Part shown: one piece after another, positions 2,324-16,000 of the stretch
Position numbering within the stretch: the stretch's first letter is position 1
Layout of the letters: each line of letters opens with the position of its first letter
DNA from: Actinobacillus indolicus
GTDB lineage: Bacteria; Pseudomonadota; Gammaproteobacteria; Enterobacterales; Pasteurellaceae
Direction of reading: 5' to 3'
DNA length: 16,000 nucleotides
NCBI RefSeq assembly: GCF_004519515.1
Contig: NZ_CP038145.1
Coordinates: forward strand, 380,770-396,769
Notes under the pieces: model-generated
What the model was told of the DNA's origin: nothing
The model's input: only the letters and a program-made list of their open reading frames with translations
Database searches by the model: none
Program-made: the position numbers and the translations under genes

Positions 2324-4273
2324 ATGTTAGCCCTACTCCATGATTTAAAAATAGAAAACATAATTTCTGAGTTAAATTACCAATTTGCCAAAATGATTGA
2401 TCGTCAGCAACAAGCTTACGATTACACACCGTTGCAACAAAATCTTGCGATTTTATTAAGTGCTTTAGTTTCAGATAGTGTGATGAAAGGTCATAGCTGT
2501 ATTCGTTTAGATTCTACTTTGGCAAATAACCCTTTTGGCTTACAGAGCAAAAATTTAAGCCGTCCATTCTATCAAGAGATTTTGCAAAAAATTGAAGGAA
2601 TCTCACCGCTTGAATGGCAACAAGTATTACAAAACCACGTCGCATTTAGCCATGATTCTGCACAGGTTGCCCCTTTGCTATTTCATAATCAACGCCTCTA
2701 TTTTTATCGTTATTGGCAAGCCGAAAATCGTATCGCTTATTTGTTAAAACAAGCGGTCAGTTCTATGCCACAAAATGCAAATGTTGAATTGGACAAGCAG
2801 ATTCTCGATCAATTTTTTACTCATCAAGAGAATATTGATTGGCAAAGAATTGCCGTTGCCACGGCTTTGAATAAAAATTTTAGCCTGATTTCAGGTGGGC
2901 CGGGAACAGGGAAAACCAGAACAGTGGCGATCTTGCTTGCCGCACTGCAACTTAAACAACTCAAACAGCAATTACCCCCATTAAAAATTGCGCTTGCAGC
3001 ACCGACAGGAAAAGCCGCTGCACGTTTAAAGGAGTCGATTACGCAAAGCCTGCTTAATCTTGATTTACCCGCGCAGTTAAAAGCCAATATTCCAACACAA
3101 GCTTCTACCATTCACTCGCTGATTGGGATAAAACCGAATCAGGATTTACCCCTTTATCACGTGAATAATCCACTACATTTAGATCTGTTAGTGGTCGATG
3201 AAGCGTCCATGATCGATATTTTTGTGATGGAAAAGCTCTTTAATGCCCTGAAACCCGATACAAAAGTAGTGATGCTTGGAGATAAAGATCAGCTTGCCTC
3301 TGTGGAAGCGGGAAATTCGATGGGGGAATTAGGGGAACTCATTGAGCTTGGTTATAGCGCCGAACATTGTCAGTATCTTGAACAAGTGACAGGCTACACT
3401 CAATCACCCGAAAATCCGAAGGTTGCAACCATCTGTGATTCACTCTGTCACTTACGCCATAGCTATCGTTTCAATGCACATTCAGGTATAGGGCAGATTG
3501 CTAAACAGGTCAATGAACAACAAGCGGTCAGATCTTGGCAAATTTTTGCAAATCCAGAATATACCGATCTTAAGCTGTTTACTTACCCAAGCCCGACAGA
3601 GTTTGCTGAAAAATCCCAATGGATTCAGCACAGTGTCAATATGATCACGTCCAAAGCGGTTGAACTCTATAAAGACTATCTACAAAAAGCCAAGGCACGT
3701 ACACGTTCTCCCGAAACGGTATCCGTCAGTGATATTTTTGACGCTTTTCAGAAAGTTCGCTTCCTATCCGCATTGCGCGTAAGTGAACTTGGCGTTGAGC
3801 AATTAAATCAACGTATTGCGGAAGCCTTACAACAAGCAGGTTATATCCACTTTAAACATAGCCGAGATAGCTACATTGGCAAACCTGTTCTCATCACGGA
3901 AAATGTGCCACATTTACATATCTTTAGTGGGGATATTGGCTTAATGTTGCCAGATGAATCAGGTACATTACGTATCTATTTTGAAACACAACAAAATGGG
4001 CAACATCTCGACATATTGCCGAGCCGTTTACCAGATCATGAACCGGCTTATATTATGACGGTACATAAATCCCAAGGTTCAGAGTTTGAGCATACGCTCT
4101 TAGTGATGCCACTCAACACTTCACCCGTATTAACCAAAGAACTCGTTTATACGGCAATTACTAGAGCCAAATCTCAATTCACGCTCTTTGGTGATGAAAA
4201 GACATGGAAGCAAGCGGTAAAAGCCAATATTCAACGCCAAAGTGGATTAAAAGAGATGTTACTTGCAGAATAA
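2324..4273 (+). CDS. recD: Exodeoxyribonuclease V alpha subunit RecD (SF1 helicase)
   Basis: Walker A SGGPGTGKT, AAPTGKAAARL, Walker B LVVDEASMID, GDKDQLASVEAG and the C-terminal TVHKSQGSEF...VYTAITRA all align with recalled E. coli RecD. I moved the start from the track's GTG at 2273, which lies inside the pykA terminator stem, to the ATG at 2324. The resulting N-terminus MLALLHDL...ELNYQFAKMI aligns with E. coli MKLQKQLL...PLDVQFALTV. Confidence 0.93.
   Translation: MLALLHDLKIENIISELNYQFAKMIDRQQQAYDYTPLQQNLAILLSALVSDSVMKGHSCIRLDSTLANNPFGLQSKNLSRPFYQEILQKIEGISPLEWQQVLQNHVAFSHDSAQVAPLLFHNQRLYFYRYWQAENRIAYLLKQAVSSMPQNANVELDKQILDQFFTHQENIDWQRIAVATALNKNFSLISGGPGTGKTRTVAILLAALQLKQLKQQLPPLKIALAAPTGKAAARLKESITQSLLNLDLPAQLKANIPTQASTIHSLIGIKPNQDLPLYHVNNPLHLDLLVVDEASMIDIFVMEKLFNALKPDTKVVMLGDKDQLASVEAGNSMGELGELIELGYSAEHCQYLEQVTGYTQSPENPKVATICDSLCHLRHSYRFNAHSGIGQIAKQVNEQQAVRSWQIFANPEYTDLKLFTYPSPTEFAEKSQWIQHSVNMITSKAVELYKDYLQKAKARTRSPETVSVSDIFDAFQKVRFLSALRVSELGVEQLNQRIAEALQQAGYIHFKHSRDSYIGKPVLITENVPHLHIFSGDIGLMLPDESGTLRIYFETQQNGQHLDILPSRLPDHEPAYIMTVHKSQGSEFEHTLLVMPLNTSPVLTKELVYTAITRAKSQFTLFGDEKTWKQAVKANIQRQSGLKEMLLAE
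2749..2758 (+). repeat. Apl-type DNA uptake signal sequence, perfect 10-mer ACAAGCGGTC (inside recD)
   Basis: acaagcggtc is read directly at 2749-2758. Confidence 0.8.
3520..3529 (+). repeat. Apl-type DNA uptake signal sequence, perfect 10-mer ACAAGCGGTC (inside recD)
   Basis: acaagcggtc is read directly at 3520-3529. Confidence 0.8.
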
Positions 4274-4369
4274 TTTTAATGAATGAAAGAATTATGATTT
4301 AAGCCAAATTTTCTCAATGAAAAAGCGCATAGAATAACAAGCAGAATTTTTTATTATTGGGTGTGTTGT

Positions 4370-5923
4370 ATGATCATCAATCAAAGTATAGGGAAATTAC
4401 TGAAACAAAACTTTTCATCTGGATTAGTGGTTTTTTTAGTTGCGCTACCGCTCTGTTTAGGTATCGCTTTAGCATCAGGTGCGCCACCGCTTGCAGGTAT
4501 TCTTTCTGGGATTGTCGGTGGAATCGTTATCGGTGCATTTAGTACATCACACATCAGTGTTTCAGGCCCAGCCGCTGGACTTGCTGCTATTGTTTTGGCA
4601 GCAATTACGGAACTGGGCTCTTTTGAACTCTTTCTCTGTGCAGGATTAATTGCAGGTGTTGTTCAGTTTATCCTTGGTTTTGTACGGGCAGGAAGTATTA
4701 CAAACTATATTCCTGTGGCGGTGATTGAAGGTATGCTTGCTGGAATTGGGGTGCTTATTATCCTTAAGCAGTTGCCTTACGCTCTAGGAAGTAATGAGAC
4801 ATTATTAGCATTAATCGAAAGTAGCCAAGTTCATTTGGGTTCTTTACTTATCGCACTCATCTCTCTCGCCATTATGATTGGTTGGGATCACCACCCTAAA
4901 CTCAAAAAAATAAAATTACTTCCATCAGCCCTTGTTGCTGTTATCGTTGGCATTTTATTAAATGACCTTTTTGTTTATTTTAATTTGCCTTTAGCTATTC
5001 CAAATTCACAGCTCGTTCAGCTACCAATTCCCCATTCTTTAGAAGAAGCAGAGAGCCTAATTCGTTGTCCGAATTTTTCAGGATTTACCAACAGTGTCGT
5101 TTGGGTAACTGGGATTACGATTGCGGTTGTCGCCTCCGTCGAGACTCTACTTTCCATTGAAGCTGCCGATCGTTTAGACGTACACCGTAGAATCACTGAT
5201 AATAACCACGAATTACGAGTGCAAGGCTTTGCCAATATTCTAGCTTCTTGTATTGGGGCATTACCAATGACTTCCGTGATTGTGCGTTCATCCGCCAATG
5301 CAAGTGCAGGTGCAACCCATAAAATCTCTGCCGTTATTCACGGTATTTTATTGCTGATCTGTGTTATCTCTATTCCGACACTATTGAATCAAATTCCCCT
5401 TGCTACTTTAGCAGCAGTACTGATTTTAATTGGCTTTAAATTAACCCATCCAAAACATTACAAACATTTTTGGCACAAAGGCATTTATCAATTTATTCCC
5501 TTTGTTGCAACAATGGTTGCCGTTGTCTTTTTGGATTTATTAAAAGGGGTTGGGATTGGCTTAGTCATCAGTATTCTCTTTATTCTCCATGGTAATATGA
5601 AACGTGCTTACTATTTAAGCCGTGAAGAATTAAGCGAAGCCGATGAAATCGTTTTAGAATTAGGCGAAGAAGTCTCTTTCTTGAATAAAGCTGCAATTAA
5701 GAAAACCTTAAAGAACATTCAGCCGAACTCCAAAGTCACTATCAATGCAGAAAAAGCGTTATATATTGCGAGTGATGTTTTAGAACTACTTGAAGATTTC
5801 ACCAATGTTTATGCCCAAGAAAATAATATTCAAGTGAAATTACGTGGTTTCAAATACGATTACGAACATCAAGAAGGTGTAGAACATACCCATATTCGAG
5901 TGGAACATCGAAGTCGTATTTAA
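4370..5923 (+). CDS. SulP-family inorganic anion transporter with a C-terminal STAS domain
   Basis: About 517 aa from the ATG at 4370. The track's GTG at 4361 has no ribosome-binding site. The protein is polytopic and hydrophobic, with the SulP N-terminal pattern GLVVFLVALPLCLGIALASGAPPLAGILSGIVGGIV...SVSGPAAGLA. The soluble C-terminal domain (VLELGEEVSFLNKAAIKKTL...) is typical of STAS. Confidence 0.88.
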   Translation: MIINQSIGKLLKQNFSSGLVVFLVALPLCLGIALASGAPPLAGILSGIVGGIVIGAFSTSHISVSGPAAGLAAIVLAAITELGSFELFLCAGLIAGVVQFILGFVRAGSITNYIPVAVIEGMLAGIGVLIILKQLPYALGSNETLLALIESSQVHLGSLLIALISLAIMIGWDHHPKLKKIKLLPSALVAVIVGILLNDLFVYFNLPLAIPNSQLVQLPIPHSLEEAESLIRCPNFSGFTNSVVWVTGITIAVVASVETLLSIEAADRLDVHRRITDNNHELRVQGFANILASCIGALPMTSVIVRSSANASAGATHKISAVIHGILLLICVISIPTLLNQIPLATLAAVLILIGFKLTHPKHYKHFWHKGIYQFIPFVATMVAVVFLDLLKGVGIGLVISILFILHGNMKRAYYLSREELSEADEIVLELGEEVSFLNKAAIKKTLKNIQPNSKVTINAEKALYIASDVLELLEDFTNVYAQENNIQVKLRGFKYDYEHQEGVEHTHIRVEHRSRI

Positions 5924-6969: not shown

Positions 6970-7000
6970 AGCACCAGCCTTTAAACTGGTGCTTTCTTCA
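6970..7000 (+). terminator. Hairpin terminator between the convergent cybC and amidohydrolase genes
   Basis: 8-bp stem: agcaccag (6970-6977) pairs with ctggtgct (6986-6993), followed by ttcttcatt on the + strand. The same hairpin lies just after the - strand gene that ends at 7010, but the - strand has no T-run. Confidence 0.6.
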
Positions 7001-7009
7001 TTATAACGG

Positions 7010-8164
7010 CTAATTAAGGTATTTTTTTGCTAATTGCGCTAAATAATATGCGGTCGGAAACAACACGGAATCATCTACTTTAAATTTTGGATGGTGAAGC
7101 GCATAAGGCCCGCCAGAACCGATCATAATAAATACGCCTGGAATATGTTTTTGATAGAAAGCAAAATCTTCACCGATAGGGCTTGCTTCAATCAGTTTAG
7201 CATTAAATCCACACTCTGTTGCTGTATCTAGTACAAAATCAATCCATTGTGCCGAGTTAATCACAGAAGGTGGACCTTCATGCCAAATTAGCCCAATCTC
7301 AACTTCAAATGTCTCTGCAATGCCTTGTACTATCGTTTTAAAACGTTGAGCAATTTTCTCTCTAACCTCTGAATTAAAAGTTCTTACTGTGCCTTCTAAA
7401 TAAGCAGAATCTGGAATCACATTCCATGTTGAACCACTATGAATTTGGGTAATAGAAACTACTGCATTTTCTTGAGAAGCAATATTTCGACTAATAATAG
7501 ACTGTATAGCACTAACAAGATGCGCTGAAATCACAATCGGATCTTTGCCATCATGTGGGCGAGCGGCATGAGCACCTTTTGCAGAGATTTTAACCTCAAA
7601 ACGATCCACGCCCGCCGTTAATGCCCCCGCTTTGGTGCCTAAATCCCCAACAGCAAGTGTAGGATCATTATGAATGCCAAATATTAAATCAACATCCTCT
7701 AAAACGTTTGTATTTAGGACATCTACAGCCCCCAGGCCTGTTTCTTCCGCTGCTTGAAATAAAATTCTCACTGTTCCTTTTAAAGTTTCTTGTTGTTGCT
7801 TTAATAAAATAGCAGCTCCAAGTGCGGCAGAAAGATGAAAATCGTGGCCACAAGCATGCATCACTCCAGCATTTAAAGAGCTATACTCTACGCCACTCTC
7901 TTCTAAAATAGGTAATGCATCAATATCTGAACGTAGTGCCAACATTTTACCAGGTTGTCTCCCTTTAATTTCAGCAACTAGCCCCGTTTTTAAGGGTAAA
8001 TCAAGTACTGTAATTTGATACTGTTCTAAAATTTCACGGATTTTAGCTGTGGTCTCAAACTCTTGATTAGATAATTCAGGATATTGATGACGCTCTCGAC
8101 GAAATTGAGTGAGAAAATCAGCGAGAGATTGATGTTCGTGAATGATATTTTGAAAAAAAGACAT
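7010..8164 (-). CDS. M20D-family amidohydrolase (N-acyl-amino-acid deacylase, YxeP/SndA-like)
   Basis: 384 aa. It carries the metal-site motif MHACGHDFH, which is characteristic of the M20D/ILR1/YxeP subfamily, plus GTVRILFQAAEE and HNDP. A strong AGGAG Shine-Dalgarno overlaps the upstream stop codon. The length matches B. subtilis YxeP (about 380 aa). Confidence 0.88.
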   Translation of the reverse strand: MSFFQNIIHEHQSLADFLTQFRRERHQYPELSNQEFETTAKIREILEQYQITVLDLPLKTGLVAEIKGRQPGKMLALRSDIDALPILEESGVEYSSLNAGVMHACGHDFHLSAALGAAILLKQQQETLKGTVRILFQAAEETGLGAVDVLNTNVLEDVDLIFGIHNDPTLAVGDLGTKAGALTAGVDRFEVKISAKGAHAARPHDGKDPIVISAHLVSAIQSIISRNIASQENAVVSITQIHSGSTWNVIPDSAYLEGTVRTFNSEVREKIAQRFKTIVQGIAETFEVEIGLIWHEGPPSVINSAQWIDFVLDTATECGFNAKLIEASPIGEDFAFYQKHIPGVFIMIGSGGPYALHHPKFKVDDSVLFPTAYYLAQLAKKYLN

Positions 8165-8172
8165 AAAAACTC

Positions 8173-9504
8173 CTAAATTTTTTCACTATACGTTTGAATA
8201 AAATTAACCAAATTTATCGGGTGGAAAAACTGGCGAATATCACGAATAAAAGCCATGCTGAGTTCTTGATTTTGCAATGCTGTAACTAGTTTTTGTTCCA
8301 ATTCATCTGAACTATATGGATTCATTGGACTACCTTTGGGATAATTAACTCGGCTTTCTAAACATTTTCCATCCATGAAACCAATTTCAATCTTGGCATA
8401 CCGAGGAAATACTTTATCTTCGATATATTCTCGCGTTATTTTTTGCATCAGTTGAACAGTATCAGAATGAATTAGTTCGGTATTAAAGGCATCAAAACTT
8501 AATGACTCCTTGGCAAGGATTTTTGCCACAATATATTCGGCAGAAAAACGTCCTTGCAATGAAGTCTGAGGATATTTATAGATCAACGCACTATCCGCAT
8601 TTGGATTTATCGTTACCTTGATGTACTGGATTTGCGCTAGATCTAATGTATGCGAAGATACTAAACTGTCAGTGGCATCAGCAATACTCGAAGCAGCGGA
8701 GCAATAACTATAATTTTTGAACCATAATTCGCTTATCTGCCATTTTTGTCCCCAATTAGATAAATCTAATATAGCCTCTGAATTTGCAAAAATAGTGAGG
8801 AATCCTACCGCTTGATCGAGGAAATCCCCCGTTACATTTAACCCCAATTTAAGCCACTCAATCGATTGAATAGCTTGTTGTGCCGCAATGCCTGCGTGTA
8901 ATGCTTTCACAGAACTACCAAAGACTAAACGTAGCCCAGAGGCTTGTGTCGCAGCTAACATAAACGCTTGCTCTAAAAATGGGTACTGATGTAAATAACA
9001 AATTGCAGCGACAGAGGCTATTCCACCAAGGGTTGCCGTTGCATGCCATCCTTTCAAATAGAGCGTAGGATTCACTGCTTTACCTAAACACGCCATCACT
9101 TCCACACCAATAATATACGCAGTAAGAAAACGTCGGCTATCAATAAATTGATGCTGAGTTATATCAATACTGGCAAATAATGCCGATAGAATCACCGCCG
9201 AAGGATGTCCTCGAACGAGTTCATGCACATCATCATTGTCTAGCAGATGAGCTTGAAACCCATTGCATAATGCTGCTTGCTTACTTGTTACATATACTTT
9301 ATGTCCAATTAGCCAGCTCGTTTGGATACCTTGTTCCTGAAGAATCGCTTTTTTCAGTTGCTCAATATCATGCTGATTTGTTGCAGGTAAACTTGAGGCA
9401 AAATAATCTATCACCCCATTTATTGCATAATCTAATACAACATCATCAACAATTAATGGCGTATCCATAATCAACTTACTAAACTGTTGGCTTTTCATAG
9501 ACAT
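8173..9504 (-). CDS. MmgE/PrpD-family protein (YxeQ-like); specific activity unknown
   Basis: 443 aa. Family-typical segments are present (DNDDVHELVRGHPSAVILSALFA, WHATATLGGIASVAA). The start ATG overlaps the ATPase stop (TAATG at 9502-9506). The size matches B. subtilis YxeQ (about 445 aa). Confidence 0.85.
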   Translation of the reverse strand: MSMKSQQFSKLIMDTPLIVDDVVLDYAINGVIDYFASSLPATNQHDIEQLKKAILQEQGIQTSWLIGHKVYVTSKQAALCNGFQAHLLDNDDVHELVRGHPSAVILSALFASIDITQHQFIDSRRFLTAYIIGVEVMACLGKAVNPTLYLKGWHATATLGGIASVAAICYLHQYPFLEQAFMLAATQASGLRLVFGSSVKALHAGIAAQQAIQSIEWLKLGLNVTGDFLDQAVGFLTIFANSEAILDLSNWGQKWQISELWFKNYSYCSAASSIADATDSLVSSHTLDLAQIQYIKVTINPNADSALIYKYPQTSLQGRFSAEYIVAKILAKESLSFDAFNTELIHSDTVQLMQKITREYIEDKVFPRYAKIEIGFMDGKCLESRVNYPKGSPMNPYSSDELEQKLVTALQNQELSMAFIRDIRQFFHPINLVNFIQTYSEKI

Positions 9505-10256
9505 TAAATATAAAACTCGACAGGATCTGAAAATTGACGAACAAAACGTTTAGTTAATTCATGTGTTGGATGATCAATCACGGATTTCGCAGCCCCTTGC
9601 TCTACAATACCGCCATTTGCCATAAAAATAACACGATCCGCCACATTTCTTGCAAACTCTAACTCATGGGTAACAATCACCATGGTAATTTTCTGTTTGG
9701 CTAATAGCTGTATGACTTGCAAAACCTCATTCACTCTTTCAGGGTCAAGTGCTGAGGTTGGCTCATCAAAAAGTAACACTTTCGGCTTAACTGCTAAAGC
9801 TCTCGCAATGGCAACTCGTTGCTGTTGTCCACCCGATAAAGTAACAGGATATTGATGAGCTTGAGGTAATAACCCCACTTGTTTTAATAAAGATAAGCCT
9901 AACTCTTTTGCTTGTTCTTTATCCATTCCTTGAGAAACAATCGGTCCTAATGTGATATTTTCTAAGGCTGTTTTATTTTTAAATAAATTATAGTGTTGGA
10001 ATACCATGGCCGACTGATTTCTCAAGTCACTTTCTTGCTTATGGCTATATTTTTTTGTATCTAATGCAATTTCACCAATAGTAATTCTTCCTGAATTCGG
10101 TTTTTCTAATAAATTTAAACAACGTAATAAAGTAGATTTACCCGAGCCAGATGGACCGATAATGGCTACCACTTCCCCTTCGTTAATGGTTAAATCGATC
10201 TGATTTAATACCGTATTATTTCCAAAAGATTTAGTTAATTTTTCAATATTAATCAT
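9504..10256 (-). CDS. Polar amino-acid ABC transporter, ATP-binding protein
   Basis: 250 aa. Walker A GPSGSGKST, Q-loop, ABC signature LSGGQQQRVAIARAL, Walker B LLFDEPTSALD and H-loop VTHE are all present. Confidence 0.95.
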   Translation of the reverse strand: MINIEKLTKSFGNNTVLNQIDLTINEGEVVAIIGPSGSGKSTLLRCLNLLEKPNSGRITIGEIALDTKKYSHKQESDLRNQSAMVFQHYNLFKNKTALENITLGPIVSQGMDKEQAKELGLSLLKQVGLLPQAHQYPVTLSGGQQQRVAIARALAVKPKVLLFDEPTSALDPERVNEVLQVIQLLAKQKITMVIVTHELEFARNVADRVIFMANGGIVEQGAAKSVIDHPTHELTKRFVRQFSDPVEFYI

Positions 10257-10266
10257 GAGATAATCC

Positions 10267-10938
10267 TTAACGTTTATACGGTTGAGATAACTTATTTTCT
10301 AATACTTTTTGAGCCCAAGAGTAAAGCACCACTACCGCCCAATAGATAATACCTACCGCCAAATAGGTTTCGAAAAAGCGATAAGACTCCACAGTTAATA
10401 ATTTCCCTGCGGCAAGTAATTCAGGTACACCAACAAAGAAAGCAACAGAAGAATCTTTGAGTAAGGAAATAAACATATTCCCCGTACCAGGTAGTGCATT
10501 GACAAACGCCTGCGGTAAAATCACATGTTGATAAATTTTAAAGGTGCTTAGTCCCATTGCACTTCCCGCCTCTTTCTGCCCATGATCCACAGATTCTAAA
10601 CCGGCTCTAAAAATTTCAGCTAAATAAGCGGAATATTTTAAGGTGAAACAAATAATAGCTGCGGTCATTGCTGGCATTTGTACTAAGGTAGGAATAATTT
10701 GAGGCGAACCATAATAGACAATAAAAAGCAACACGACGGAAGGCATACTGCGAAATAACGAAATATAAAGTGCCAATAATTGATCAATACCTTGAATTTT
10801 TTTAACACGAATTAACGCAATCACTAAGCCTAAAATGATCGCAAAAAAGATAGACACTATCGCAATCCACAATGTCGTTGGTAAATACACGATAATTTGA
10901 GGAAAAATTCCTAAAAAATAACCTAAGTCAAAATTCAT
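10267..10938 (-). CDS. Polar amino-acid ABC transporter permease (HisM/HisQ/TcyB type)
   Basis: 223 aa, multi-pass and hydrophobic. It carries the EAA loop EAGSAMGLSTFKIYQHVILPQA. Confidence 0.92.
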   Translation of the reverse strand: MNFDLGYFLGIFPQIIVYLPTTLWIAIVSIFFAIILGLVIALIRVKKIQGIDQLLALYISLFRSMPSVVLLFIVYYGSPQIIPTLVQMPAMTAAIICFTLKYSAYLAEIFRAGLESVDHGQKEAGSAMGLSTFKIYQHVILPQAFVNALPGTGNMFISLLKDSSVAFFVGVPELLAAGKLLTVESYRFFETYLAVGIIYWAVVVLYSWAQKVLENKLSQPYKR

Positions 10939-10977
10939 AAAAACTCACAGACAAAAAGGATTAATGGTGGAGAGAAT

Positions 10978-11040
10978 AAACAAGCGGTCGTTTTGATTCA
11001 AAAATTTGCAAAATTTTAGCCATAACGTACCGCTTGTTAC
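10978..11040. repeat. Inverted pair of uptake signal sequences forming a hairpin in the binding-protein/permease spacer
   Basis: ACAAGCGGTC lies at 10980-10989 (+), and taccgcttgt at 11028-11037 is ACAAGCGGTA on the - strand. The arms aacaagcggtcgtt and aacgtaccgcttgtt pair as 10 bp, a 1-nt bulge, then 4 bp, around a loop of about 31 nt. Confidence 0.75.
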
Positions 11041-11054
11041 TTATCTATTTAAGT

Positions 11055-11852
11055 TTATTTGGTAGGTTCTGAAATATCTTCACCATAATATTTCACTGCG
11101 AGTGCTTTAATGGTGCCATTTTCTTTTAATTTAGTGATTGCTTTATCAAACTGTTCTCTCAGTTGGTTACCTTTTTCATTCGGTAAAAATCCATAGCCGA
11201 CCTCTTCAATAACTAATGGTTTTCCAACTAATTTAAAAGGTAAATTTCCACGTTTAATTTCCGCCAATAAAATAGGTTTGGAATTCACATAACCATCAAC
11301 GCGTTTATACACTAAATCGTACATTGCCCCATCACGAGTTTCATAGGTTTTCACATTCACTTCATTGTTTGGAAAGTGTTTCTTCAAATTATTGATATGG
11401 TTAGAACCCAGCACACCCGAAATGGTTTTCCCATGTAAATCGGCATATTCGTTGATATTTTCATTATCTTTATGTGTCACAATTTGGCTACCGTAATAGC
11501 TATAAGGTTGAGTAAAACTATATTTTGCCTTACGGGCTTCTGTGATGGCGACCGCATTTGCGACGGTATCCAATCGACCTGATTCCAACTGCCCCATTAG
11601 TCCAGCAAATTCAGCAGTTGTCCATTCAACACGGTAGCCGAGCTCTTTGGCAATAGCTTCTGTGGTTTCCACATCAAAGCCAACTAATTTCCCATCTTGT
11701 TTAAAGCCATTTGGATAACTTTGCCCTGTACTGCCTACGCGTAGCACCTTTTCAGGTTGACTTGGAGCCACTTGGGTATTTTCACTTTTTTCACATCCTG
11801 CTAAGGCAAGCCCTGATAAAAGTAAGCTGGTAAGAATATATTTCTTAGACAT
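11055..11852 (-). CDS. Amino-acid ABC transporter substrate-binding lipoprotein (cystine/S-substituted cysteine type, YxeM/TcyA-like)
   Basis: I moved the start to the ATG at 11852, which is preceded by AAGGAAA, giving 265 aa. The signal peptide has the lipobox LALAGC. Family-3 binding-protein motifs are present (GFDVE...AEFAGLMGQLESGRLD...ITEARKAKYSFTQPY). The track's longer ORF (to 11918) would overlap the GNAT gene and lacks a ribosome-binding site. Confidence 0.9.
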   Translation of the reverse strand: MSKKYILTSLLLSGLALAGCEKSENTQVAPSQPEKVLRVGSTGQSYPNGFKQDGKLVGFDVETTEAIAKELGYRVEWTTAEFAGLMGQLESGRLDTVANAVAITEARKAKYSFTQPYSYYGSQIVTHKDNENINEYADLHGKTISGVLGSNHINNLKKHFPNNEVNVKTYETRDGAMYDLVYKRVDGYVNSKPILLAEIKRGNLPFKLVGKPLVIEEVGYGFLPNEKGNQLREQFDKAITKLKENGTIKALAVKYYGEDISEPTK

Positions 11853-11886
11853 AATGTTTTCCTTATTTAAAATAAAAATGTTGTGT

Positions 11887-12408
11887 TTACTGAGCTTTTC
11901 GTGTTTGCCACTGCTCAAAAAGCGTTGTATTAATCACTTTTCTAAAATAGATCGTTGTGTGATCATCGGTTAAATTTGCTCGCCCAATTTCGCTAAATCC
12001 CTGATTTATATAAAATTGAGATAACCATGGATGATTCTCTGCGGTGCCTAATGTAACAAAAGGTACTTTAAGTTGTTTTTTCAAAATCGCTTCTTCTAAC
12101 CAAATCAGTAATTTCAATGCATAACCTTGCTTTTTGTAAGTAGGATTTGTGGCAAATAAACCGATATGAGGCACACCAAAAGGGCCAGGATTATTTCCCC
12201 ACGGCAACCGTAGACTGACTGAGCTCACCAGCTTGCCCTCTACAAATAGCCCATACACCAAATTGCTCTCAAGATGGCGTCGAATATCCGACAAGGTCAT
12301 ATTTGAAGCAGCGAAATGAATACCTAATTCAACGACTGGCTTATATGCTGTATGCAACAACTGTTGATAAATTTCCTCTTCCTGTAAGGTAATTTCACGA
12401 AATTCCAT
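11887..12408 (-). CDS. GNAT-family N-acetyltransferase (YxeL/SnaA-like)
   Basis: 173 aa. The acetyl-CoA binding motif A is present (TNPTYKKQGYALKLL, pattern Q-x-x-G-x-A). A GGAG Shine-Dalgarno lies inside the 3' end of the lyase gene, and only 2 nt separate the lyase stop from this ATG. Confidence 0.85.
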   Translation of the reverse strand: MEFREITLQEEEIYQQLLHTAYKPVVELGIHFAASNMTLSDIRRHLESNLVYGLFVEGKLVSSVSLRLPWGNNPGPFGVPHIGLFATNPTYKKQGYALKLLIWLEEAILKKQLKVPFVTLGTAENHPWLSQFYINQGFSEIGRANLTDDHTTIYFRKVINTTLFEQWQTRKAQ

Positions 12409-12410
12409 AT

Positions 12411-13772
12411 TTACTCCAACAGCCCTGAGGATTCGGCAAAATCAACTACTGCATCAACTTTCTCAATCGCAGAACCTAAATAATTATTGGGTTCTAACCA
12501 GTTTGCTAATTCATCAGCACTAATATGTTGAGCCAGCGTAGGATGAGTAACTAAAACATCGTAAAAAGGCTTATTTTGTTCAAAAGCTTGCATCGCTGTT
12601 TCATAAACAAGATGATGTGCGGTCTGTTTACCTAACTGTTTTCCTAACTCAAACATCACTTTTTCCGATAACAACAAGCCTTGTTGCAATACTAAATTTT
12701 TTTGCATCTGTGCTGTATTTACTTTTAAACCACGTAAAATCGCTAATGCAATTTGGAGTTGAGCTGAGAGATAAATATTTAATTCTGGTAAAGCAATCCA
12801 CTCCGCTCGCCAGCTCATTGCATCACGCTCATGTTCTACTCGCATTGATTCATGAATGAGTGCAACACTTTTAAAGACTGGAGAGGTTAAACTTGCTAAA
12901 CCTTCTAAAGCAGCTGGATTGCGTTTATGTGGCATGGTAGAAGAACCAATTTTGCCTTCGCTAAATGGTTCTTCAATTTCATTAATTTCTGTGCGCATGA
13001 GGTTATAAAACTCATTGCCAATTTTGCCTAAAGTGCCACTAATCAATGCGACAACTGAAGCATATTCAGAAAAACGATCCCTTGCAGATTGCCAACTAAT
13101 TAATGGCGTATTTAATCCCAAAATATTCAAGGTGAGAGCTTCAACTTGTGGACCTTTATCACCAAAGGAAGCATAAGTCCCAATCGCACCATTAATATTT
13201 CCGACTAATACCCTTTCCTTTATCTCTTTTAAACGTGTTAAATGGCGAAGAAACTCATCTAACCAGACCGCTAATTTGAAGCCAAATGTGGTAGGTAATG
13301 CTTGCATACCATGCGTTCTCCCAACCATTGGCAAAGCACGATATTGTTTCGCTAGTTTCTTTAACTCTTGAGCTACCAAACGACTATCTCGCTCAATGAT
13401 ATGAAATGCCTCTTTAAGCTGTAATGCTGTTCCAGTATCTACAATATCTTGTGTCGTTGGGCCGTAATGAACAAATTCTCCAGCCTCACCGCATTGAGCT
13501 TGCAAAGTATTGATTGTCGCCATAAATGAATGCTTTAAGCGAGCAATTTCTTGAGAAATCGCCTCTAAATCGAATTGTGCAGGGTCGGCACGCTCTGCAA
13601 TTTTCTGTGCAGCTTCTTTAGGAATTACCCCTAATTCTCCTTCTGCTTTTGCCAAGGCAATTTCAATTGCGACATGTTTTTTAAGACGATTTGTTTCTGA
13701 CCAGACCTCACGCATTTCAGCCGTACCGAAATTATTGCCTAAGGTGAGAAAATCAATGATATGAGATGCCAT
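12411..13772 (-). CDS. Fumarase/aspartase-superfamily lyase of the adenylosuccinate lyase / 3-carboxymuconate cycloisomerase branch; candidate S-(2-succino) lyase
   Basis: 453 aa. All three conserved superfamily regions are present: HYGPTTQDIVDTG, GRTHGMQALPTTFG and the signature loop GSSTMPHKRNP. It is the first gene of the seven-gene operon. Confidence 0.88.
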   Translation of the reverse strand: MASHIIDFLTLGNNFGTAEMREVWSETNRLKKHVAIEIALAKAEGELGVIPKEAAQKIAERADPAQFDLEAISQEIARLKHSFMATINTLQAQCGEAGEFVHYGPTTQDIVDTGTALQLKEAFHIIERDSRLVAQELKKLAKQYRALPMVGRTHGMQALPTTFGFKLAVWLDEFLRHLTRLKEIKERVLVGNINGAIGTYASFGDKGPQVEALTLNILGLNTPLISWQSARDRFSEYASVVALISGTLGKIGNEFYNLMRTEINEIEEPFSEGKIGSSTMPHKRNPAALEGLASLTSPVFKSVALIHESMRVEHERDAMSWRAEWIALPELNIYLSAQLQIALAILRGLKVNTAQMQKNLVLQQGLLLSEKVMFELGKQLGKQTAHHLVYETAMQAFEQNKPFYDVLVTHPTLAQHISADELANWLEPNNYLGSAIEKVDAVVDFAESSGLLE

Positions 13773-13867
13773 GTTTCAACCTTTTCTAATGAACAACGGA
13801 ATTTATGTTAGAAAAGATTGTGAAAGATAGGAAATAACTACTTCGTATCTAAAAGATGATTTAGCTA
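13773..13867 (-). promoter_or_regulatory. Promoter/operator region of the seven-gene operon; the exact elements are not resolved
   Basis: This 95-nt AT-rich gap lies between the upstream terminator and the lyase ATG (AAAAGG Shine-Dalgarno). Only weak -10 candidates exist (TAACAT at 13810-13805, ATAAAT at 13806-13801). The one good -35-like hexamer (TTCACA, 13824-13819) is badly spaced from them. This pattern is consistent with an activator-dependent promoter. Confidence 0.35.
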
Positions 13868-13912
13868 TATAAAAACAAAAGGCAAATACTAGATACCTAC
13901 TATTTGCCTTTA
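13868..13912 (-). terminator. Rho-independent terminator ending the cysB / secreted-protein transcript
   Basis: 15-bp stem with one mismatch: 13878-13892 (aaaggcaaatactag) pairs with 13897-13911 (ctactatttgccttt), with loop atac. On the - strand the stem is followed by TTTTGTTTTT. Confidence 0.85.
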
Positions 13913-13928
13913 TCAACGCTAGATTAGA

Positions 13929-14569
13929 TTACTTCACAAAATCATCAAACGTCAGTTCGTAATTATCACCATCTCGGCTATAAGAAATATAGCGAGGGAA
14001 TTTCTCCCCTTCGAATTTTTTCACTGTAATATATTTGTTATCGGTTTTAAAACGATAAGTAATTTCTTCATAGCTTTGACCTTTTACTTTTACCGTTTTA
14101 GTTGATTGATTTAGCACGACATTCTCTGTTGGATATAACTTCTTACCATTGGTAGTTTGAAAACTATTGGGTAGTTTGCCGTAATAACTTAACTGAAACG
14201 CCACAGAAAAGAGATCAAAAGTAGGCATAGTCATAGGTTCTTTTTTCAAAGGATCTTTTACTCGACCGTACTGAATCGTTTTTGAATCAATTTCCGCCAT
14301 CGCATAGGTTTTACCGTTACGGGTATCTCGATAGCTCAACATATTAAATTGATTATTACGCTCTTGCCCTTTTGCAGTAAAAACAATGTTATATAAAGGC
14401 ACATTGATTTTAGAGACAATCGAATAACTTTGCCCATTATTTTTAAAATGAACATAAGCAGGCATTAAATAATTTGAGCTATATTTGATGTTAAACTCTT
14501 CCGCCATGGCATTTGTAAAAAGACCGACAGAAGTGACCGCTAGTAATAACGCTTTTTTAAATAATTTCA

Positions 14570-14570
<1 letters not shown>
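13929..14570 (-). CDS. Secreted or periplasmic protein of unknown function, beta-rich (possibly DUF3108-like)
   Basis: 213 aa. Sec signal peptide MKLFKKALLLAVTSVGLFTNAMA, with predicted cleavage AMA/EE. The mature part is rich in Lys, Tyr, Asn and Thr with alternating hydrophobic residues, which is typical of beta-barrel or sandwich folds. A GAGGA Shine-Dalgarno precedes the start, and the ATG overlaps the cysB stop. The family assignment comes from memory of the general pattern only. Confidence 0.6.

Positions 14571-16000
<1,430 letters not shown>

Follow-up and report, generated by a model that had tools for sequence, protein, structure and literature searches.

An operon of Actinobacillus indolicus matching the lyase variant of the yxe/scm pathway for S-(2-succino)cysteine salvage

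We analysed a window of 16,000 nucleotides from Actinobacillus indolicus (NCBI RefSeq assembly GCF_004519515.1, contig NZ_CP038145.1, positions 380,770 to 396,769 of the forward strand); all positions below refer to this window. Seven genes at positions 7010-13772 very probably (at a probability of about 85%) represent the lyase variant of the yxe/scm pathway for the salvage of S-(2-succino)cysteine (2SC). This interpretation had been proposed in the initial annotation of the stretch, and it is supported by the homology of all seven proteins, by synteny and by the clade to which the lyase belongs. The operon is a new example of a published pathway (Hillmann et al., 2022), not a new system.

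In the yxe (scm) pathway, YxeL acetylates 2SC to N-acetyl-S-(2-succino)cysteine (2SNAC), the monooxygenase YxeK oxygenates 2SNAC, which yields oxaloacetate and N-acetylcysteine, and YxeP deacetylates N-acetylcysteine (PMC9706529). YxeP, also termed ScmP, was shown in 2025 to be a highly specific N-acetylcysteine deacetylase (PMC12757645). In 27 of 102 yxe loci, yxeK is replaced by a lyase class I enzyme, the S-(2-succino) lyase (2SL) (PMC9706529). The 2SLs of Dickeya dadantii (E0SKP1) and Enterococcus italicus DSM 15952 (E6LDH5) complement a yxeK deletion and reversibly cleave 2SNAC to fumarate and N-acetylcysteine, and they favour 2SNAC about 40-fold over 2SC (PMC9706529). In terms of the yxe/scm cluster definition of Hillmann et al. 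(2022), the window holds four of the five components (homologues of L, MNO, P and Q), together with a 2SL, in one operon.

The Pfam scores of the lyase (Lyase_1, 164 bits; ADSL_C, 67 bits) assign it to the lyase class I (fumarase/aspartase) superfamily, whose motifs are found as TTQD (residues 106-109), GRTHG (151-155) and GSSTMPHKRNP (276-286). To compare it with characterised 2SLs, as the initial annotation had suggested, we scanned one genome per species, which returned 80 related loci, including those of E. italicus DSM 15952 (L062) and of Dickeya (L045, L047). With the E. italicus gene product the window lyase shares 66% identity over 453 residues (609 bits), with that of D. oryzae (L045) 73% (694 bits) and with that of D. 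undicola (L047) 72% (691 bits); the Dickeya comparison runs through these two species, since the characterised D. dadantii enzyme is not among the 80 loci. The best full-length representative in a library clustered at 50% identity is only 50% identical to the lyase. Lyases from 28 loci (the window, E. italicus and Dickeya included) and the 70 full-length representatives of the 50% clusters that come nearest, all of them at most 50% identical, were then placed in a neighbour-joining tree. All locus lyases form one clade that contains none of the 70 representatives. By identity, tree, structure matches and model scores taken together, the lyase groups with the E. italicus and Dickeya enzymes rather than with PurB, ArgH or PcaB; being distance-based, without bootstrap and without named outgroup sequences, the tree supports clade membership rather than a refined phylogeny. 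Within the clade the window lyase is found among those of Pasteurellaceae and Orbaceae, adjoining the Pectobacteriaceae including Dickeya. Ten of the top twenty representatives were scanned, and all of them remain below every specific NCBIfam cut-off, with XcbD or the PRK08937 subfamily model as top scores. The 2SL clade thus lies in a poorly characterised part of the superfamily.

The lyase gene adjoins the GNAT gene in the window, and the same holds for all 80 related loci, in which lyase identity goes down to 59%; they span four phyla (Pseudomonadota, Bacillota, a Prevotella-labelled contig and a Deferribacterales genome). A luciferase-like monooxygenase gene was not found among the open reading frames (ORFs) of the window. 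With 66-73% identity to characterised enzymes, the operon is an orthologous copy of the pathway published in 2022, and its lyase is predicted to cleave 2SNAC to fumarate and N-acetylcysteine.

The NCBI protein that is 100% identical to the lyase (A. indolicus) is named adenylosuccinate lyase, and the enzyme could accordingly be a PurB of purine biosynthesis that by chance lies beside a generic polar amino-acid transporter, an acetyltransferase and an amidohydrolase. The name is explained by the TIGR00928 purB model, on which the window lyase scores 393 bits against a cut-off of 326 bits. However, the characterised E. italicus 2SL also exceeds this cut-off (368 bits), and the lyases of the window, E. 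italicus, Dickeya, Lysinibacillus and Aggregatibacter all show the same NCBIfam score pattern and all lie above it, which means that TIGR00928 does not discriminate between the two enzymes. NF006764, the model for PurB of the E. coli/Pasteurellaceae type, gives the window lyase only 105 bits against a cut-off of 446 bits. Among solved structures the best scores, all from enzymes other than 2SL, are those of Tad1 (310 bits), the BNC1 'fumarate lyase' (301 bits), PcaB (279 bits) and PurB (248 bits), and identity to solved PurB, PcaB and Tad1 is only around 40%. Moreover, no purine genes lie nearby, and the lyase gene accompanies the GNAT gene in every one of the 80 loci, across four phyla. A canonical purB is expected elsewhere in the A. 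indolicus genome, as in Pasteurellaceae genomes generally. We consider a role as PurB extremely improbable. The specific models for PurB, PcaB, ArgH (69 bits on the argH model), XcbD and nitrosuccinate lyase were all tried as names for the lyase and all remain below their cut-offs, with the non-discriminating TIGR00928 as the exception.

The same name is found on orthologues elsewhere. A plasmid of Pantoea piersonii (NZ_CP115896.1; L083 8001-13408) carries a block of lyase, GNAT, binding-protein, permease, ATPase and amidohydrolase genes, the lyase being 73% identical to that of the window. The block sits on Pantoea megaplasmids of about 510-530 kb, where RefSeq gives the lyase the gene symbol purB and a purine-biosynthesis Gene Ontology term, a label that could be cited in favour of PurB. 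NCBIfam has no 2SL model, and its purB cut-off admits 2SLs that have been characterised. As a consequence, metabolic reconstructions mis-assign the enzyme, which is systematically named adenylosuccinate lyase or 'purB', even on these megaplasmids.

For the six other proteins we used the yxe operon of a member of the B. subtilis group (L081), which was recovered through a sequence search with PDB 7BRA (98%-identical match). Its genes encode proteins of 441, 165, 264, 224, 249, 380 and 445 amino acids (aa); the Bacillus sizes of 264, 224, 249, 380 and 445 aa that the initial annotation had given were thus correct, and the last six values are almost the same as the lengths of the window proteins listed in Table 1. 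BLASTP against the L081 operon locus matched each of the six proteins to the corresponding yxe gene, with E values between 2e-49 and 2e-127. The GNAT is 41% identical to YxeL over 161 of 165 residues (E 2e-49), the binding protein 48% to YxeM (E 2e-90), the permease 50% to YxeN (E 1e-71), the ATPase 58% to YxeO (E 5e-109), the PrpD-like protein 37% to YxeQ (E 5e-86) and the M20D amidohydrolase 48% to YxeP (E 2e-127). For the GNAT neither an NCBIfam model nor a PDB sequence match was found, and its identification rests on the comparison with YxeL; its gene directly follows that of the cleavage enzyme, as it does in Bacillus. We predict from its sequence that it is the 2SC N-acetyltransferase. 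The top PDB match of the M20D protein is B. subtilis YxeP itself (1YSJ, 375 bits; the next match reaches 217 bits), and it is likewise predicted to be the N-acetylcysteine deacetylase. As to the transporter, the binding protein scores 151 bits on the cystine-binding protein model, whose cut-off is 312 bits. A canonical cystine importer was considered and rejected, as all three components are below the TcyJ/L/N-type cut-offs. The importer presumably takes up 2SC.

Seven other Pasteurellaceae loci, from six species-level lineages, have exactly the window order lyase-L-M-N-O-Q-P; they belong to Pasteurella langaaensis, Haemophilus parahaemolyticus (two loci), an uncultured Haemophilus, a Pasteurellaceae metagenome-assembled genome (MAG), a Mesocricetibacter MAG and a strain of A. 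actinomycetemcomitans. In Lonepinella only the lyase was matched. This identical order, together with the invariable adjacency of lyase and GNAT genes, indicates that the seven-gene arrangement is not due to chance. The order of P and Q is indeed the reverse of that in Bacillus, as had been noted before. Orbaceae loci have lyase-L-M-N-O with Q, and no M20D gene was found in them. The E. italicus locus shares all seven gene families with the window, even though its host belongs to the Firmicutes and that of the window to the Pasteurellaceae. Besides the lyase, identities are 46% (GNAT), 60% (binding protein), 58% (permease), 61% (ATPase) and 55% (M20D), and about 38-41%, depending on the method, for the YxeQ-like protein. 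Both loci share the core order lyase-GNAT-binding protein-permease-ATPase. However, the E. italicus order is Q-lyase-L-M-N-O-P, in which Q lies upstream of the lyase gene and the M20D gene comes straight after the ATPase gene, whereas in the window the YxeQ-like gene separates the two. Of the characterised lineages, Dickeya lies closest in the lyase tree, and it has six shared genes in the order and on the strand of the window (lyase 72-73%, GNAT 49%, binding protein 63%, permease 58%, ATPase 70% and M20D 68% identity). The loci of Dickeya, Pectobacterium and Brenneria read lyase-L-M-N-O-P without Q, contain no YxeQ-like gene within 10 kb, and in several cases have an extra divergent binding-protein gene upstream. 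In B. subtilis yxeKLMNOPQ (scm), finally, six of the seven proteins have homologues in the window, with 37-58% identity. The logic of acetylation, cleavage and deacetylation is the same (PMC9706529), but the C-S bond is cleaved by the flavin mononucleotide-dependent monooxygenase YxeK, which produces oxaloacetate, whereas the window has an unrelated lyase that would produce fumarate.

On this basis the pathway in A. indolicus would run as follows. The lipoprotein, permease and ATPase (the YxeMNO homologues) would import 2SC, a stable adduct of fumarate and cysteine, which the GNAT would N-acetylate to 2SNAC. The lyase would then release the succinyl group of 2SNAC by beta-elimination, giving fumarate and N-acetylcysteine, and the M20D protein would deacetylate the latter to cysteine. 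Deacetylation and the consumption of fumarate would pull an equilibrium that otherwise favours the adduct. Finally, the YxeQ-like protein may epimerise C2 of the succinyl group, so that both diastereomers arising from non-enzymatic succination become usable by a stereospecific lyase. We infer from the sequence comparisons that 2SC is the substrate in A. indolicus; it would be either host-derived, scavenged from host tissue, or endogenous.

Several points weigh against this reading. The Bacillus comparison covered the operon locus rather than the genome, with paralogues such as YtnL, YhaA, other GNATs and other Tcy-type transporters outside its scope. We found no published experiment on A. indolicus or on any Pasteurellaceae orthologue. 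Moreover, 2SLs are promiscuous towards small thiols, and the equilibrium favours adduct synthesis more than 150-fold (PMC9706529), so that physiological substrate and direction depend on the other enzymes. Dickeya-type loci do without the YxeQ-like gene, and the YxeQ-like protein is the most divergent among Pasteurellaceae (51-53% identity, versus 73-84% for the lyase, transporter and deacetylase); its contribution may thus be dispensable, and both points also count against the epimerase function proposed for it below.

It is conceivable that the same enzymes and the same logic serve another S-substituted cysteine or a succinated small thiol, or that the lyase is mainly synthetic. That 2SLs succinate several small thiols, with an equilibrium on the side of synthesis, fits this, as do the paralogous clusters that B. 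subtilis has for other S-alkylcysteines (PMC12757645). Apart from generic models, the nearest named one in NCBIfam, and the second best overall, is XcbD (NF052536), a C-S bond-forming synthase that makes 3-sulfopropionylcysteine in bacterial coenzyme M biosynthesis and belongs to the same superfamily. XcbD makes or breaks a bond between the sulfur of cysteine and a carbon beside an acid group. However, the window lyase reaches 449 bits on this model, below the cut-off of 600 bits, the genomic context differs, and there are no coenzyme M genes in the window. That the operon includes an importer and a deacetylase speaks for catabolism. Orthologues that have been characterised favour 2SNAC over 2SC and complement the defect in growth on 2SC (PMC9706529), and at 66-73% identity to enzymes of known specificity a switch of substrate is unlikely, though possible. 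We thus regard another substrate, or a synthetic role, as unlikely and retain 2SC salvage.

The remaining component, the YxeQ-like MmgE/PrpD-family protein, is listed as being of unknown function in Hillmann et al. 2022 (PMC9706529). Its top PDB match is 7BRA, deposited as 'B. subtilis IRG1' (241 bits), followed by iminodisuccinate (IDS) epimerase (140 bits) and cis-aconitate decarboxylase (64 bits); no PrpD structure is among the ten PDB matches at E<=0.001. The sequence derived from 7BRA has its 98%-identical match in the L081 operon, whose neighbours are genes of the eutH, DUF1206, deoC, nucleoside-transporter and pyrimidine-nucleoside-phosphorylase families. We take these to be the known Bacillus map around yxeR and deoR-dra-nupC-pdp. 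Match and gene neighbourhood together show that the 'Bacillus subtilis IRG1' of PDB entries 7BRA and 7E9D is the last gene product of the yxe/scm operon, YxeQ (L081 9001-10338). The paper that solved the structure does not use the name YxeQ, and the structural and the sulfur-metabolism literatures thus appear to be unconnected.

The deposited name suggests that the PrpD-like gene might encode a cis-aconitate decarboxylase ('IRG1') that makes itaconate and has nothing to do with the sulfur pathway. Yet the PDB protein in question is YxeQ, in which H277 and Y318 of human IRG1 are not conserved (PMC7347537) and which lies outside the clusters of cis-aconitate decarboxylases (PMC7347537, PMC12290011). 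The window protein, moreover, is closer to IDS epimerase than to cis-aconitate decarboxylase by the above scores, and YxeQ-like genes occur in 49 of the 80 lyase loci as well as in the YxeK-type Bacillus operon. Itaconate production is therefore very unlikely. The Bacillus 'IRG1' has been reported to be without demonstrated activity and of undetermined function (PMC12290011).

An epimerase acting on C2 of the succinyl group of 2SC or 2SNAC is a more plausible, though still tentative, function for the YxeQ-like protein, which we propose by analogy. Its gene accompanies both the monooxygenase variant, which yields oxaloacetate, and the lyase variant, which yields fumarate, and this speaks for a role on the side of the substrate. 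2SC itself belongs to the C2-substituted succinates. The known substrates of the MmgE/PrpD family all have a C2/C3-substituted succinate skeleton in common, and one member is an (S)-(R)-methylsuccinate isomerase that uses His102 and Tyr148 (PMC12290011). In IDS epimerase, which is about 28% identical to YxeQ ('bsIRG1'), the active-site residues of the latter are fully conserved, including the His and Tyr proposed as bases for epimerisation, the Tyr of which is missing from mammalian IRG1 (PMC7347537). All seven of these YxeQ residues (D91, R100, H102, Y146, H151, K266 and C271) are kept in the window protein, and they are kept in 47 of the 49 other locus homologues. Window residues H100, Y149 and H154 align with H99, Y145 and H150 of IDS epimerase, so that its proposed His/Tyr bases are present as H100 and Y149. 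IDS epimerase (from Agrobacterium tumefaciens BY6, PDB 2HP0/2HP3) and methylsuccinate isomerase (PMC12290011) are both MmgE/PrpD proteins acting on a C2-substituted succinate, and both provide precedents for the window protein; each works alongside a stereoselective downstream enzyme, a C-N lyase in the IDS pathway and a CoA transferase in the case of the isomerase. The substituents on which the two act are an amine or a methyl group, whereas here it would be a thioether.

From the chemistry, non-enzymatic addition of a thiol to fumarate should give both C2 configurations, of which lyases of the fumarase superfamily accept one only, as probably does YxeK. The His100/Tyr149 pair would deprotonate and reprotonate C2, so that the other half of the damaged cysteine could be recovered. 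In the literature we found neither an epimerase proposal for YxeQ nor stereochemical data on 2SC. The 2SNAC used by Hillmann et al. had been produced with 2SL itself as the enzyme (PMC9706529), which would mask any stereochemical limitation. Besides the loci without a YxeQ-like gene and the divergence of the protein within Pasteurellaceae, a further observation speaks against the proposal. In a tree of YxeQ-like proteins, two distant lineages are found on similar lyase cores. The type of the Pasteurellaceae and Orbaceae (window, L001-L009, L058, L075) is 31-34% identical to that of Sodalis, Erwinia, Rahnella and Thorsellia (L054, L055, L059, L060, L064-L067), although the lyases are 65-72% identical, which suggests replacement or independent recruitment.

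Inspection of the ORF list confirms the layout that had been claimed, with all seven genes on the minus strand, separated in order of transcription by 2, 34, 116 and 10 nt, a 1-nt TAATG overlap and 8 nt, and the Pfam assignments of all seven proteins agree with the labels originally given. Table 1 lists these genes and the further features of the window. The ORF of the binding protein runs mechanically to a TTG at 11918 (11055-11918). From the ATG at 11852 the protein has 265 aa and starts with the lipoprotein signal MSKKYILTSLLLSGLALAGC, with the lipobox LAGC at residues 17-20.

Table 1. Positions of the operon genes and of other features in the window.
Feature	Position	Strand	Description
Lyase	12411-13772	-	453 aa; Pfam Lyase_1 and ADSL_C; S-(2-succino) lyase (2SL) orthologue
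GNAT	11887-12408	-	173 aa; YxeL/ScmL homologue; weak Pfam GNAT matches
Binding lipoprotein of ABC importer	11055-11852	-	265 aa; SBP_bac_3; YxeM homologue
ABC permease	10267-10938	-	223 aa; BPD_transp_1; YxeN homologue
ABC ATPase	9504-10256	-	250 aa; ABC_tran; YxeO homologue
MmgE/PrpD-family protein	8173-9504	-	443 aa; MmgE_PrpD_N and MmgE_PrpD_C; YxeQ homologue; tentative epimerase
M20D amidohydrolase	7010-8164	-	384 aa; Peptidase_M20 and M20_dimer; YxeP/ScmP homologue
Intrinsic terminator of the cysB-orf213 unit	13878-13911	-	marks the 5' boundary of the operon
Hairpin separating the M20D gene from the convergent cytochrome b562 gene	6970-6993	.	marks the 3' boundary of the operon
Putative promoter/operator region	13805-13871	-	from alignment A1 of Pasteurellaceae upstream regions; function inferred
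CysB	14570-15553	-	two genes upstream; NCBIfam CysB equivalog, 554 bits (cut-off 436)
orf213	13929-14570	-	213 aa; N-terminal signal peptide
Apl-type uptake-sequence inverted pair, hairpin	10979-11038	-	in the 116-nt gap between binding-protein and permease genes

Both hairpins that had been placed at the ends of the operon prove real by folding. The upstream one has a free energy of -16.9 kcal/mol (z -4.8) and is followed by the U-run UUUUGUUUUU. The downstream one reaches -18.4 kcal/mol (z -6.4) on the minus strand and -16.7 kcal/mol on the plus strand; its T-run lies on the plus strand, where it is listed as terminator-like, and it is thus better read as the terminator of the cytochrome b562 gene, although it may work in both directions. 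At 0.378, the operon's GC content is like that of its flanks (0.386 and 0.358). A recent horizontal acquisition was considered, and these values give no compositional signal for it. Apart from CysB in Zophobihabitans, the genes that flank the operon in the window accompany it in no other locus. The block sits in differing neighbourhoods, which fits transfer and rearrangement alike.

Upstream of the lyase gene lie a -10-like TAACAT (13810-13805), whose -35 is poor, and ahead of it the blocks TATATAGCTAAA (13871-13860) and GTTATT (13838-13833). In seven Pasteurellaceae the blocks TATATAnCTAAA and GTTATT and a -10-like TAnnAT are kept 5' of the lyase gene despite differing neighbour genes. The region is a candidate promoter with a candidate activator site, and its pattern would suit a promoter that depends on an activator. 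Scanning the whole window with Rfam and for tRNAs gave no match, so that it holds neither a riboswitch nor a leader RNA from any known family. CysB is the master regulator of the cysteine regulon. Its gene lies two genes upstream, which suggests that expression of the operon is probably tied to sulfur or cysteine limitation; as the regulator of the operon CysB is a candidate only. In Zophobihabitans entericus (L002 7321-8292) a CysB homologue of 54% identity is encoded about 1.7 kb upstream of the operon, in the order topA-cysB-corA-operon. Among the remaining 78 loci no CysB gene was seen close to the operon, and the proximity could be a coincidence or a remnant of an ancestral arrangement. 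The intervening orf213 belongs to no Pfam or NCBIfam family and has no homologue near the operon in any other locus; its ATG overlaps the stop codon of cysB by one base, so that the two are probably co-translated.

The window contains five exact Apl-type DNA uptake sequences (ACAAGCGGT), with 0.07 expected. Two of them, at 10980-10988 (plus strand) and 11029-11037 (minus strand), form the inverted pair listed in Table 1, and the other three are at 451-459, 2749-2757 and 3520-3528. The fold of 10955-11050 has a free energy of -23.8 kcal/mol (z -5.2). This hairpin may act as an mRNA stabiliser or as a partial terminator, which would raise the expression of the binding protein over that of the membrane components. 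None of the seven other Pasteurellaceae loci has such an inverted pair in this gap; that of A. actinomycetemcomitans (L075) has a single Hin-type uptake sequence there.

As to the remaining neighbours, one flank encodes SixA, pyruvate kinase, RecD, a SulP-family transporter and cytochromes b561 and b562, and the other orf213, CysB and a YjjG-type nucleotidase. The gene of the SulP-family anion transporter (4361-5923, plus strand) lies about 1 kb past the 3' end of the operon, beyond the cytochrome b561 and b562 genes, and the protein does not reach the cut-offs set for sulfate permease, DauA and BicA.

Taken together, the analysis extends a published pathway for the salvage of a damaged metabolite to the Pasteurellaceae. 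No description of the pathway in this family was found in the literature covered, which did not extend to the species list of the 102-locus survey by Hillmann et al. Useful by-products are a documented misannotation and a hypothesis on the function of YxeQ that can be tested and that follows from its likeness to IDS epimerase. If true, this hypothesis would give the B. subtilis protein deposited as 'IRG1' a function and would complete the 2SC pathway. A. indolicus is an NAD-dependent inhabitant of the porcine upper respiratory tract (PMC6940273). Besides this species, the operon is carried by H. parahaemolyticus, the A. actinomycetemcomitans lineage, P. langaaensis and Mesocricetibacter, and also by Orbaceae of the insect gut. 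The carriers are all host-associated bacteria for which the supply of cysteine matters; at high fumarate, their hosts form 2SC.

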